A stretch of 64,000 nt of DNA from Escherichia coli (GTDB taxonomy: Bacteria > Pseudomonadota > Gammaproteobacteria > Enterobacterales > Enterobacteriaceae). The position numbers were made by a program. Positions 36,001 through 42,000 of this stretch are shown one piece after another. The first letter of the stretch is position 1. Every line of letters starts with the position of its first letter. The stretch lies in the NCBI RefSeq assembly GCF_001677475.2, contig NZ_CP015229.1; one strand, given 5' to 3'.

Positions 36001-39000
36001 GGGCAGACTCAAACAGATTCAATTTGAACGCGTTATGGACATTTCTGCGGCGTAATTCACGTGCGGCAAACCACCAGTACATGGTACCGCCAACAAGATT
36101 CGAGGCGTACCAGGCAATAACAAAACCCGCAAAACCAAAGTCAAAATACCAGGCAACGACGCTCCCCGCTGCACGCAGAAAAGGTTTCGTCGCCTGCTGT
36201 ACAGCAATTAAATCGAAGCGATCTACCGCACGCAGAATGCCGGTCGGCGTGGAGGAAGCCATTGAAGGAATGAGCGTGCAATAGAGCGCTGCCAGCCAAA
36301 AACTTTGGTCATCCAGACCTAATGAATGGGAAAGGAATGGCAGTAAGGCAATGCCGCCGACAATCGCCACCGCGCCGCTGACGATATCCAGCGAGAAGGA
36401 AAAAGAGACGACATTGCGAAATTGCTGCGGATTATTGTTGGTTAATGCTGGTGTTCCGTACTGAACCACCAGCTGCCATGTCTGAAACTTAATAAAATCG
36501 CTGATCGACTTGGCGTACGATTGCACAATCACCAGTACGCCAAACATGGCGGGCGTCATCCCTTTACCGGCACACGAGAGCGCCAACAGACCCAGCAAGG
36601 CGCTCACGACATTACTGGAGCCTAACCAGGCGCTATTGCGAATAATGGTGCGAAACGCGCCATCTGCAAACCAATGTTTGATGTTAAAACCCGCCAATTC
36701 AGCCTGAACTTATCGTTGATAGTAAAAAGTATCCGCCAGCCTTAAGTTAAACTTCGGCGGTCAGAAACGATGGCAACCAGAGAAACCGCCTTCTGTGCCT
36801 GTTCCAGCACTTCGCTGTAGGGCGCTCTGGAATCAATCTCAAGAATTTTTGTGCCGTTATAGCCAATCGTCGACATGACGCCGATTTTGTCCTGCAGCTC
36901 GGCATAGTCATGGTCAGGCTTGCGGGAGATGGCAGTATCAATATCAATCCCCAAACGAATGATTAATTCAGGACGGTATTGCGCCATTTGTTGGTATAAA
37001 CGCCGTTCGCGCTGCGCCAGAAACATGCTGATTTTCCCGGTCGCACGTTCGACGCCGATCCCCGGTCCGTCATAATAAAAGCCCGAAATTTCAGCCTGCG
37101 GGAAGCGATCGCTGACCACCAGAACGCCACTTTGCGCCAGTCGCTGAACCTTGCGTAGATTCGCCATTCTTCGCAGCGAGAAGCAGTACATAATCACCGC
37201 CGCCCATAGCGCTGGAGATTTGGTTTTCATGCTTTGGGTTTTCGAGGATTTGGCCGCCAGTCGCCGTTCGAGCCAGACGCCAACCAACGGCAATCGTTTG
37301 ATTTTGTCGCCGTCTTCGCCGGAGAGCAGCCCCAGATAGCGGCGCTCAGTTTGCCAGTGTTGTTGCAGCGATTTCACCAGGTCAGTGGTCAGTGTGGATT
37401 TACCGGTGCCATCACACCCGACCACCGCAATCAGCCCCGGAATGTAGTTGGGCTGCGGCGCGGTTGTACTATTAACAGTTTGTGTTTGTAGTGCATCCAT
37501 TCGTTAAATCATCCCTATCCATTTGGTGATCAGGAAAGCGCGGCGTGAATTGCGCGTAGTGACGCTTGCAGAATTTCATCGGCTGGTTGCCGACCATCCA
37601 GTTCAAGGATCTTTGCGCCATTGAATGTCAGTTGCGGCGTAACGGCGATTTTTTCCTGTAACGCTGCCAGTTGGTGGTCAGGTTTACGCGCAAACGCGGT
37701 TTGTTCATCAATGCCAAGACGAATCAACAATACGGGCAAATAAGACGCCATCCATTGGTACAGCTTCAGCTCGCGCTGCCTTAACATTTTTATCCAACCG
37801 TTACCGCCCGTAGTTTTTGCCAATTGCGGGCCATCAAAGCGAAAACCCGGCACTTCAACCTGCGGGTAGCGGTCGGTGATGAGCAGATAGCCTTGCTGGC
37901 TTTTACACAACATTTTGCGAAACTTGTACGCCCGCCAGCAGGAAAGCAGATAGATAACCAGTGCAGTAATATTGCCAGGCGGTGTTGAGGGCTTTTCGTG
38001 CACATGTGCCGCTTTACTTCGCAGATAACGCCCAAAAGATGCGCCAATAATGGGCAGCTGTGAAATCCATTCGCCAATTCGCCCGGACGATTGCCCGAGA
38101 TAAATGTGTTCTGTTGGCATTCTTGCTGCCAGTTCATTTACCAGGCTTGCCGTGAGGGTCGATTTACCTGAACCATCACATCCTACAATGGCAATAACAC
38201 GCACTGGCGTGGAATTAATTATTGACATATTACGTTGATTCACGAAAAACCCGGCAGCAAATAATGTATTGAATATTACGTGGTCCGTGCTCAGAATATC
38301 CGTTCAACCTTATTGTGACAATGGTTAATTGTGACATTGACCTGAATTACGCTTTCATAAAAACATATTAACCAAATAAATATTTTTAATGGATATTTAA
38401 ATTAAAGGATATATTCATGCAGTCAATAACACCTCCATTAATTGCCGTTATTGGTAGCGATGGTTCAGGCAAGTCAACGGTGTGTGAACATCTCATTACC
38501 GTTGTCGAAAAATATGGTGCTGCCGAAAGAGTTCATTTAGGAAAACAGGCCGGAAATGTCGGTCGTGCAGTGACAAAATTACCGTTGATGGGAAAATCCT
38601 TACATAAAACAATTGAACGAAATCAGGTGAAAACAGCAAAAAAATTGCCTGGCCCTGTTCCGGCGCTGGTAATTACAGCGTTTGTCGCCCGTCGCTTACT
38701 GCGCTTTCGTCATATGCTTGCCTGTCGTCGTCGCGGGTTAATTGTTCTAACCGACCGTTATCCTCAGGACCAAATTCCTGGCGCTTACGATGGTACGGTG
38801 TTCCCACCTAACGTTGAAGGTGGTCGTTTTGTCTCATGGCTGGCAAGCCAGGAACGTAAAGCGTTTCACTGGATGGCGAGCCATAAACCTGATCTGGTCA
38901 TCAAACTCAATGTCGACCTTGAAGTTGCCTGCGCGCGTAAACCCGACCATAAACGGGAATCGCTGGCGAGGAAGATTGCCATAACGCCACAGTTAACCTT

Positions 39001-42000
39001 TGGTGGTGCACAACTGGTTGATATCGACGCCAATCAGCCACTGGAAAAGGTGCTGGTTGATGCAGAAAAAGCGATTACGGATTTTATGATCGCGCGTGGT
39101 TATCACTAGTCAAAAATGGAAATGCCCGATCGCCAGGACCGGGCATTTTCAGGAAGGTTAAATCAACTGCAATGCTATCCAGTACAACCCACCAGAAAGA
39201 AAAATCGCCGCCGGTAAAGTAAACACCCACGCCATCAGGATGCTGGTTACCGTTTTACGCTGTAACCCACCGCCGTCCACCACCATCGTCCCTGCTACCG
39301 CAGACGAGAGGACGTGTGTTGTGGAGACGGGCATCCCAATATAACTGGCAAGGCCGATAGACACTGCCGCCGTCATTTGTGCCGCCATGCCTTGCGCATA
39401 CGTCATGCCGCGCTTACCAATCTTCTCACCGATGGTCATCGCTACACGACGCCAGCCAATCATGGTGCCAATGCCGAGCGCCAGAGCTACTGCCATGATG
39501 ATCCACACCGGAGCGTACTCAATGGTGCTTAACATATCGCTGCGCAGTTTTTTCAGCAGGTTCTGGTCTTCTTTACTGACGCCTGGCAGTTTCGCCAGCT
39601 TCGCGGAGGTATCAGAGATGCACAGCATAATGCGGCGCAGCTGGCTGCGCTGACTCACGCTTAACGGCTCGTAACTTTCCATATTGCCTGGCAGCATCGT
39701 TTTAACGCGCGCAATCGCATCAAAGGTATTTGCCGGATGACAGTGAAACTCCGTCACTTGCGCGCCATCAGTCGATGCCGCAGGCAATGGAGGTTCCATC
39801 GTAATCAACTTCTGCGGCAGTTCAGGATGCTGTTGCAGGTAGTGTTCGAAGTTGGTGACGGCATCGCGGGTACGGGTAATTTCATAGCCGGACGCGTTCA
39901 TATTGACGACGAAGCCAGCAGGGGCAATCCCCACCAGTACCAGCATCACCAGGCCGATCCCTTTCTGCCCGTCGTTAGCGCCGTGCGAAAACGCCACGCC
40001 CGCAGCGGAAACAATCAGCGCAATACGCGTCCAGAATGGCGGCTTACGTTTGCCTTTTTTCTTTTTGCGATCTTCCGGAATGCGGTGAATACGGTCACGC
40101 TTTTTCGTCCCGCTCCAGAAACGGCGCAGCAGGAAAATCAGACCACCCGCAATGACCAGGCCGACGATAGGGGAAACAATCAGCGAGGAGAAAATTTTGG
40201 TCACTTCACGCAGGTTTAACGCATCCATCACCGATGAGCCGGTTAACAGCGCGTTGGTTAAACCGATGCCGATAATTGCACCAATCAAGGTGTGCGAACT
40301 GGAGGCCGGTAAACCAAAGAACCACGTTCCCAGGTTCCAGATAATCGCCGCCAGCAGCATGGAAAAGACCATCGCCAGACCGTGGGTTGACCCCATATTC
40401 AGCAACAAATCGGTTGGCAACATATGGACAATGGCATAGGCAACGCTAAGTCCGCCCAATAACACGCCAAAAAAATTAAAAAATGCCGCCATCACCACAG
40501 CAAGTTGTGGTTGCATGGCACGAGTATAAATAACGGTTGCCACCGCATTCGCCGTGTCATGAAAACCATTGATTGCTTCGTAGAACAACACAAATGCCAG
40601 AGCAAGTAATAACAAAAGCCCTGTGTATATATCAAGGCCAACAAATAAATTTAGCATATATTAGATTACGCCATTTTGAATTTACGAACGGACGCATTAT
40701 CAGTGACTTTAACGGCGTGGGCAAAGTGAAATATCATTTTTTAACGATAAAAAGAGTGTTATTTCTTGTGTATCAGACAATAAGCATTCATTCAAAACCT
40801 TTAGAATTAATCAAAACATAGCTATTCCACTGGTTAATACATTCACATATGAAATAAATAAATATTGGAACATATAAATATTGAATATTTTGATTAATCC
40901 CCGCACTGATTATTCTTCATAATCAGTGCGGGGTTGCTACAACATGTATTACTCTTTCACCACAATTAACGGTTCAATATCACTCTCTTTTTTAATGACC
41001 AGTGATTCATCACCGCGCAAACACGTCCCACCGTAGTTGCCGCCAACGGTGAAGGTACATACCTGAATGTATTTACCGTCCACTTTCGGCAAACACCACA
41101 GTTGCTGATAGATGTTTTTCTGCTCGGCAAATTTACCGCTGGTTTTGTCCAGCACCTCTTCATGATGGCTGACGAGGTCGATGTTACTGCCACAGCGACC
41201 GGCGATCGGTTTCACTGCGTAACCTGTTTTTACCAGTTCATCATTAACAGTGAAATCGGTATCCAGCAGGTAGCGATGGTGCGGGAACAGCGACCAGAGG
41301 ATCGGCAGAATCGCTTTGTTGCCGGGGATCACTGTCCACAGAGGTTCAAAGACCAGCACTTCCGGGCGCAGCAATACGTCGATAAGACGCACTTCATTTT
41401 GCGGATGACCGGTACGGATCGGCACCGCAGCAAACTCACGGTCGCTAACTTCACGAATCTGATCAAACGCGGTTTCCCACGCCCAGGTTTTCCACACGCA
41501 GTTAACCAGTCGCCCTTCCCCATCAATCAGTTGCCCGGCAGCATCCCAGCCCAGTTCATCCAGCCCGCGCAAGATACGCGTTTCAAAGCCCGCCTGGTGC
41601 AGCGCCTGCTCCATAAACTGCGCGTGATAGTTTTCCTCGATATCTTTGTCCTGCATGATATGGACAAACGGACGTGCACGACTGTGTTTCCAGGCACCAG
41701 CCAGTTCGTTAATCAGCCCTTCCGCCGGATTGAAGCCGTTGCCTTTATAGCCCTGCTCCGCCCAACGTTCGAGGATCAAGCCAGCTTCGGTATGACAGGA
41801 GGCGGAGTCGGCGTTGTATTCGTAGACCTTCAGGCCACGCTCATCCATGCAGAAATCCATACGACCGGTGATCATATGGTGACGGCGACGCTGCCAGGAG
41901 AGACGCAAACGTGGCCAGAGGATTTTCGGAATGTCGAACAGCGCCAGCAGGTTGTCATCTTTTAGCACCTTGTCGGTTGCGTGAAGATACATCAGGTGCA

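Follow-up and report, generated by a model that had tools for sequence, protein, structure and literature searches.

Two described systems resemble the genes considered here. The head-group genes known for sphingolipids of Caulobacter encode the ceramide kinase CpgB, the CDS-like protein CpgC, the CDP-alcohol transferase CpgA and the cytidylyltransferase CpgD. CpgB is no P-loop protein; its fold is of the DAGK/LCB5 type, and it carries a GGDG motif (PMC10331486). The LptF and LptG paralogues encoded in the Caulobacter sphingolipid locus bind LptB and are needed once the anionic sphingolipid is made; the locus of E. coli UTI89 is drawn in the same preprint (bioRxiv 10.64898/2026.04.12.717747). 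The other system is the archaeal family-3 polyphosphate kinase PPK3 (Saci_2019/Saci_2020; S. tokodaii STK_15430, PDB 2plr/5h70), whose operon comprises two paralogues resembling thymidylate kinase (dTMP kinase, TMPK) together with a CHAD protein, and whose regulatory subunit has lost the arginine of the DRx motif (PMC12995831). Here we analysed a stretch of 64,000 nucleotides from Escherichia coli (contig NZ_CP015229.1 of assembly GCF_001677475.2), which as a whole is called the window in the following. It encodes three paralogous P-loop proteins, YghR, YghS and YghT, next to a lipid operon that is the E. coli sphingolipid (ceramide) locus (PMC9386255; bioRxiv 10.64898/2026.04.12.717747).

We propose that YghR, YghS and YghT act as phosphotransferases of TMPK fold, none of them redundant, and that with a CHAD-domain protein they form the head-group module in sphingolipid loci of the 'E. 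coli type'. Our probability for this reading is roughly 0.45, a little short of even odds. For the narrower statement that the three proteins phosphorylate a lipid head group or the phosphate chain attached to it, the balance tips slightly in favour. The three genes are the following:

36742 to 37500, minus strand: yghR, 252 residues, P-loop kinase paralogue of TMPK fold, R subfamily
37530 to 38243, minus strand: yghS, 237 residues, GTG start, P-loop kinase paralogue of TMPK fold, S subfamily
38417 to 39109, plus strand: yghT, 230 residues, divergent and apparently monocistronic paralogue of TMPK fold, T subfamily

The initial annotation had placed three paralogous proteins of about 230-250 residues at 36742-39109, with yghS and yghR in tandem on the minus strand and yghT divergent, and the open reading frames agree with it in every one of these points; they also correspond to the RefSeq gene models of E. 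coli genomes. The sequence motifs it had listed recur in a three-way alignment with 56 invariant columns: a Walker A motif in all three proteins (the sequences include GCDGTGKST and GCDGSGKST), DRFPQ in YghR and DRYPQ in YghS and YghT, and a C-terminal RKPDH that is followed by LQDKI, LQEKI and LARKI in YghR, YghS and YghT, respectively. Pairwise BLASTP comparison over about 217-220 residues gives identities of 44% for YghR and YghS (E 6e-63), 37% for YghS and YghT (E 6e-55) and 34% for YghR and YghT (E 4e-47), a similarity far above chance level. In RefSeq, yghR is named "nucleoside/nucleotide kinase family protein" or "hypothetical protein", while yghS and yghT carry the name "dTMP kinase".

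This latter label is probably wrong. TMPK is indeed the closest solved family, by fold as well as by profile: all three proteins have the fold of TMPK and nucleoside monophosphate (NMP) kinases with P-loop, DR[YHF] motif and basic lid residues, the AlphaFold2 model of YghS has a predicted local distance difference test score (pLDDT) of 90.5, and the family profile matches TMPK sequences at E 1.5e-9. However, the scores against the dTMP kinase model TIGR00041 are 30.9, 24.7 and 25.6 bits and thus far below the curated cut-off of 83.25, and the best independent E-values for Pfam Thymidylate_kin (PF02223) lie between 0.013 and 0.3. Scans of the three proteins with Pfam, NCBIfam and PADLOC returned only TMPK matches limited to the P-loop or below threshold, and no defence-system family. 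Compared with Tmk, YghR, YghS and YghT have some 45 inserted residues, which add helices to the acceptor region (residues about 50-90), their RKPDH, PQ and DG motifs are unique to the family, they are very basic (pI 9.56, 9.76 and 9.89), and the context of their genes is lipid rather than nucleotide metabolism.

Catalytic-type motifs appear intact in all three subfamilies. Residues conserved to at least 90% in each group are (in YghS numbering) G21-x-D23-G-x-G-K27-S-T, G50, G54, P64, G67, R104, D124-R125-x-P127-Q128, D137-G138, E158, R186-K-P-D-H190 and K198, and R125, the arginine of the DRx motif, is conserved to 100% in R, S and T. Judged by these motifs, none of the three would be an obvious pseudo-enzyme and all may be active kinases. 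When residues are mapped by profile alignment to P. falciparum TMPK, D124-R125-[YF] aligns with the DRY motif and R186/K187 with the lid. The acceptor side differs. R104 aligns with the thymine-contacting arginine that follows the stacking phenylalanine; at the position of that phenylalanine YghS has Leu100, so that the pattern expected for binding of dTMP is broken. At the position of the arginine which in TMPKs binds the acceptor phosphate (R-E-P segment) leucine is found in R (93%), glutamine in S (100%) and lysine in T (100%), and at positions 58, 103, 107 and 115, occupied in R by Asp, Trp, Asn and Ala, the T subfamily possesses conserved arginines. The acceptor site becomes more positive from R over S to T, as would be expected if the three enzymes took acceptors of increasing negative charge.

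The three paralogues are old. In a scan of one genome per species 248 relatives were found, and the loci of the 80 best-scoring ones were compared with all proteins of the window locus. In a neighbour-joining tree R, S and T form three monophyletic groups with 33, 28 and 20 members, respectively, and no exceptions. Orthologues from outside the Enterobacterales share a mean identity of 51-55% with their counterpart in the window, versus 35-45% with the other two window paralogues. The initial annotation was right in recognizing three paralogues, but the triplication it described is neither local nor recent: there are three ancient orthologue groups that occur across the Proteobacteria. Nearly all loci show the arrangement yghT(-) yghS(+) yghR(+), with examples from alpha-, beta- and gamma-Proteobacteria and from a metagenome-assembled genome (MAG) of the Myxococcales. 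The module is not always a trio, as four loci (L051, L058, L059 and L069) contain four kinase paralogues with two copies of the YghT type. Fusion proteins exist in the order S-R (P0121, L070:9221-10711, L073:9170-10702) and in a T-R-like order (P0122, P0123 and P0029, the latter from Oecophyllibacter). By the Rosetta-stone argument these fusions point to a physical association of the kinases, and YghR, YghS and YghT probably work as a hetero-oligomer. Fusions of a MOP-family flippase with the kinase-like domain (P0214 and P0269) likewise speak for the proposed module.

The gene neighbours were compared as well. Among the loci, 62 span 15 kb or more; of these, serine palmitoyltransferase (Spt) is present in 50, the acyl carrier protein AcpR and the reductase CerR in 49 each, the acyl-AMP ligase AasR in 47, a flippase of the MOP family and YghQ type in 53, and the CHAD-like protein of 274 residues in 49. 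LptF2, LptG2 and the N-acyltransferase YghO follow with 32, 31 and 30 loci. A YtfJ-like protein is encoded in 36, all of the Enterobacterales type, and is absent from the other lineages. PitB and Gss, encoded on the far side of yghT in the window, accompany the kinases in only seven and two loci, respectively. The loci stem from Enterobacterales, Xanthomonadales (Dyella, Rhodanobacter, Luteibacter), Methylotenera, Gallionellaceae, Nitrotoga, Sulfuritalea, sphingomonads and the MAG from the Myxococcales. The initial annotation had tied the kinases to flippase and lipid operon rather than to nucleotide metabolism and had named dTMP or dNMP specificity joined to a lack of genomic co-occurrence as what would speak against this. 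Co-occurrence was found, the trio travelling with spt, the flippase and the CHAD gene in most loci; together with the failure of the dTMP kinase model this upholds the assignment to the lipid pathway. The nucleotidylation of a lipid or sugar, offered as an alternative to phosphorylation, is unlikely, as fold and motifs are those of P-loop kinases of the NMP and deoxynucleoside monophosphate (dNMP) type. That the trio is a functional part of the sphingolipid locus we regard as very probable.

The second component of the proposed module is encoded at 34524-35348. The model of this protein of 274 residues is very confident (pLDDT 95) and all-alpha, with two four-helix bundles that match solved CHAD domains in structure. 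A Foldseek search of the AlphaFold database yields orthologues in Sphingomonas, Acetobacter, Komagataeibacter, Zymomonas, Oecophyllibacter and Pseudomonas veronii with 28-42% identity and template modelling scores of 0.93-0.96, which are named "CHAD domain-containing protein". At the sequence level the window protein has no match in Pfam (including PF05235), NCBIfam or PDB; one member of its alignment reaches CHAD at E 0.089, and hhalign against YgiF of E. coli returns a probability of 0.2%. On the basis of the modelled fold and the annotation of its orthologues, we assign the protein to the CHAD domains. Arg, Lys and His abound among its invariant residues (R60, R88, K92, H93, R95, H105, H193, R196 and H237). 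Polyphosphate is the ligand of CHAD domains (PMC6537752), and by analogy we propose that the protein of the window locus binds a phosphate chain. A paper combining "CHAD domain" with "sphingolipid" was not found in the literature.

The resemblance to PPK3 thus extends to gene context. In both cases adjacent paralogues of TMPK fold, distinct from the housekeeping tmk and exapted from dTMP phosphorylation, share an operon with a CHAD-fold gene. In contrast to the two subunits of PPK3, the window trio has three, all with the catalytic DRx arginine and none an obvious regulatory pseudo-kinase, and the kinase module is embedded in a locus for sphingolipid synthesis and export with a MOP flippase. 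Nor does the sequence show any special affinity: against 2plr the family profile aligns over the P-loop alone (E 3.6e-4), a weaker match than to canonical TMPKs. Taken together, the CHAD partner and the parallel to PPK3 suggest that a phosphate chain, and not a sugar, may serve as acceptor.

Annotation and NCBIfam scans revealed neither a gene of the CpgA, CpgB, CpgC or CpgD type nor a glycosyltransferase in the window locus, which leaves YghR, YghS and YghT with their CHAD partner as the only candidate head-group enzymes. Homology to Caulobacter CpgB was considered and rejected, a P-loop TMPK fold standing against a DAGK/LCB5 fold with GGDG motif. Both sets of genes are located in sphingolipid loci and would occupy the same position in the pathway, converting ceramide in the cytoplasm to an anionic phospho-sphingolipid that is then exported via LptF2G2. 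Given the different kinase fold and the lack of CpgA, CpgC and CpgD homologues in the window, the two modules look like alternative solutions for the head group. That a P-loop kinase can act on a membrane lipid is known from LpxK, the 4'-kinase of lipid A synthesis.

A further likeness to lipid A phosphate chemistry emerges outside the Enterobacterales, where additional genes are interleaved with the kinase genes. An acyl hydroxylase resembling OlsC/LpxO occurs in 25 such loci, a PAP2 phosphatase whose N-terminal segment is signal-like and whose best, weak match is the lipid A 1-phosphatase LpxE in 15, an ICMT-family membrane protein with the lipid A 1-phosphate methyltransferase LmtA as best match (E 8e-31) in 12, an RND pump with outer-membrane factor in nine and a second PAP2 membrane phosphatase in seven; all of these matches lie under the curated cut-offs. 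Taken as a set, these neighbours may be remodellers of lipid-bound phosphates. Beta- and gamma-proteobacterial examples are L050:5686-11589, L058:4140-10687, L063:8102-8920, L067:6653-7192 and L049:3805-4590. The PAP2 proteins match LpxE, LpxF and SepP weakly, and genes for such PAP2 proteins, LmtA-like proteins, hydroxylases or RND pumps are not present in the E. coli window.

According to the annotation of a near-identical genome and NCBIfam scans, the gene order in the window is glcC, yghO, aasR, cerR, acpR, spt, lptG2, lptF2, ytfJ-like, the gene for the 274-residue protein, yghQ, yghR, yghS, yghT, pitB and gss. The features around the kinases are:

26139 to 31740: ceramide-synthesis core with yghO, aasR, cerR/epi, acpR and spt
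within 26139 to 31740, minus strand: yghO, N-acyltransferase (annotation and NCBIfam)
27626 to 29377, plus strand: aasR, fatty acyl-AMP ligase of the ceramide core
29374 to 30288, plus strand: cerR/epi, NAD-dependent epimerase-type reductase of the ceramide core
30320 to 30568, plus strand: acpR, acyl carrier protein of the ceramide core
30568 to 31740, plus strand: spt, serine palmitoyltransferase (NCBIfam, 600 bits, above cut-off)
31743 to 31777: hairpin with 16-bp stem between the convergent spt and lptG2
31775 to 32935, minus strand: lptG paralogue (LptG2), mechanically called open reading frame of 386 residues with GTG start
32851 to 33921, minus strand: lptF paralogue (LptF2), from annotation and NCBIfam, role according to bioRxiv 10.64898/2026.04.12.717747
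33952 to 34515, minus strand: YtfJ-family protein (TIGR01626, 213 bits, above cut-off) with hydrophobic, signal-like N-terminal segment
34524 to 35348, minus strand: Ybl138, 'hypothetical protein' of 274 residues, divergent CHAD domain (polyphosphate-binding type of fold)
35348 to 36697, minus strand: yghQ, MOP-family flippase of 449 residues, 44 bp downstream of yghR
38244 to 38416: divergent intergenic region between yghS and yghT, 173 bp, AT-rich
39120 to 39148: terminator-like hairpin between the convergent yghT and pitB

The five ceramide-synthesis genes of the E. coli version are aca/cerS (= yghO), aasR, epi/cerR, acpR and spt, and acyl carrier protein, acyl-ACP synthetase and Spt from E. 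coli BL21 have been demonstrated to be functional (PMC9386255). In the minus-strand series yghS-yghR-yghQ-CHAD-ytfJ-like-lptF2-lptG2 the successive gaps measure 29, 44, -1, 8 and 30 bp up to lptF2, which overlaps with lptG2. This spacing and the hairpin downstream make yghS and yghR the first genes of a transport operon; the hairpin at 31743-31777 is likely to be a bidirectional terminator that closes it. The lptG2 frame of 386 residues overlaps the end of lptF2 by 85 nucleotides; RefSeq uses an internal ATG that gives 359 residues and is probably the true start. In the spacer between yghS and yghT a promoter-like site for the minus strand (38321-38293) is recognizable by consensus match only. 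The scan of the locus returned eight promoter-like sites versus 8.8 in shuffled sequence and such calls therefore carry little weight. Expression of yghS rises 3.1-fold upon overexpression of SlyA in K-12 (PMC5797941), which together with the AT-rich spacer fits a silenced locus.

How the module could work may be sketched as follows. Ceramide would be made by the products of yghO, aasR, cerR, acpR and spt at the cytoplasmic face of the inner membrane. A basic hetero-oligomer of the three kinases would use ATP to phosphorylate ceramide and then to extend the phosphate, possibly in the order R, S and T, which is suggested by the increasingly positive acceptor sites, so that an anionic mono-, di- or oligophosphate head group would arise. 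The CHAD protein would bind the phosphate chain, YghQ would flip the product, and LptF2G2 together with LptB would extract it for delivery to the outer membrane. In this specific form the stepwise ceramide oligophosphate model is a tentative one, and we consider it rather doubtful. The most far-reaching variant must be called unlikely. It envisages a ceramide-anchored oligo- or polyphosphate, i.e. a lipid-linked phosphoanhydride chain, that would be made by a PPK3-like R-S-T machine, held by CHAD and exported by the MOP flippase and LptB-F2G2 in E. coli and many Proteobacteria, and in some taxa be remodelled in the periplasm by PAP2 phosphatases and the LmtA-like methyltransferase.

Within the species, 5082 of 5426 complete E. 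coli genomes match the kinase region with an identity of about 98%. The stretch from yghQ to pitB (searched with window positions 36000-39800) is covered to at least 80% in 4599 of the 5426 and the stretch from aasR to the CHAD gene (27626-35348) in 4066, so the locus is found in about 75-85% of complete genomes. Some lineages contain neither kinases nor ceramide core, for example an O157:H7 genome that matches at the pitB end only. The window as a whole is 95-99% identical to almost all E. coli genomes compared and at least 99% identical to three; the best match to its YghR among species representatives is found in Escherichia sp. MOD1-EC7003 (99%, locus L002). Judging from these identities, the window may derive from a divergent or cryptic Escherichia lineage.

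Several observations weigh against a head-group module. Roughly one locus in five (e.g. L050) lacks the CHAD gene, and as the best-scoring 80 of 248 loci were compared, the sample is biased toward closer relatives. About 530 E. coli genomes keep the three kinases without the core from spt/aasR to the CHAD gene. The acceptor-site residues were mapped by alignment and not on model coordinates, and the retention of R104 and of the aromatic residue of the DRY motif is compatible with a nucleotide-like acceptor. In the literature yghR, yghS and yghT appear in screen tables and in the list of genes responding to SlyA overexpression with no function assigned. Finally, relatives in the wider family sit in polysaccharide rather than lipid clusters.

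Among the alternatives a bacterial counterpart of PPK3 survives best, although we hold it to be distinctly improbable. Here the heteromer would make or consume free polyphosphate held by the CHAD protein, the polyphosphate would serve the sphingolipid pathway as a donor of phosphate or energy, and the lipid would not be the acceptor. The operon structure of PPK3 with its two TMPK-like paralogues and CHAD protein, the CHAD fold of the 274-residue neighbour, the very basic kinases and the hetero-oligomer suggested by the fusions are all in line with this. It conflicts with the persistence in all three proteins of the very arginine that the regulatory subunit of PPK3 has lost, with the P-loop-limited match to 2plr, and with conserved neighbours that stand for lipid synthesis, flippase and Lpt transport. 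Unlike the surroundings of PPK3, neither the window nor any inspected locus contains a ppx, sixA, pst or ppk gene or a NUDIX polyphosphate neighbourhood. Moreover, E. coli already has PPK1 and PPX.

Less probable still is that the P-loop proteins act as ATPases or regulators which bind to the cytoplasmic face of YghQ and gate or energize export without phosphorylating the cargo. This possibility draws on the wider family. A profile search of 1.84 billion representatives yielded 2170 proteins at E <= 1e-3 and 143 at E <= 1e-30. Many relatives comprise about 500 residues, with the kinase-like domain C-terminal to a domain of about 260 residues (e.g. P0162, P0168 and P0171); L082:5721-9482 belongs to the same group. 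This N-terminal domain carries the motif H-x-K-S-N-x-H-L...G-E-T-D-x-D-x-L-V and has no match in Pfam; its identity with the 274-residue CHAD protein was considered and rejected, since neither BLASTP nor hhalign detects similarity. In P0214 and P0269 (about 1000 residues) a MOP flippase, an intervening domain and the kinase-like domain are fused, the flippase part of P0269 matching Pfam Polysacc_synt_3 at E 1e-74, and in P0251 the kinase-like domain is fused to a glycosyltransferase-like domain. In one polysaccharide cluster, which in addition encodes glycosyltransferases, Wzy, a sulfotransferase and other P-loop proteins, the gene for a relative of about 500 residues lies immediately behind that of a MOP flippase. 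The pairing of MOP flippase and kinase-like domain is therefore broader than sphingolipids, which, with the YghQ-type gene in 53 of the 62 loci, keeps an action on or with the flippase alive. However, the invariant DRx arginine, the Arg/Lys residues of the lid and the conserved acceptor-side residues are hallmarks of phosphoryl transfer onto a second substrate rather than of a plain ATPase, three differentiated paralogues are hard to account for by gating alone, and MOP flippases are ion-coupled.

The least probable reading, and a very unlikely one, takes the RefSeq names at face value and sees genuine kinases for dTMP or other NMPs and dNMPs that supply nucleoside di- or triphosphates locally: the TMPK-like fold and profile, the P-loop aspartate, DR[YF], the basic lid residues, the arginine aligned to the thymine-binding one and precomputed PF02223 matches on many YghR homologues are outweighed by the failed family models, the altered stacking and acceptor-phosphate positions, the lack in the window locus of a nucleotidyltransferase to use the product, the tight synteny with lipid genes across classes, and the location of the essential tmk of E. 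coli elsewhere in the genome.

The genes yghR, yghS and yghT have long been counted among the "y-genes" of E. coli. Seen as a head-group module together with the CHAD protein, they lead to the prediction that the sphingolipid of E. coli bears a head group composed of phosphate only, possibly with phosphoanhydride bonds. If this is true, the exaptation of thymidylate kinase seen in PPK3 would extend from archaeal polyphosphate metabolism to the synthesis of bacterial envelope lipids, and a second route to anionic sphingolipids would exist as an alternative to CpgABCD of Caulobacter. Such a route would bear on the charge of the outer membrane, on susceptibility to polymyxin and on recognition by the host.

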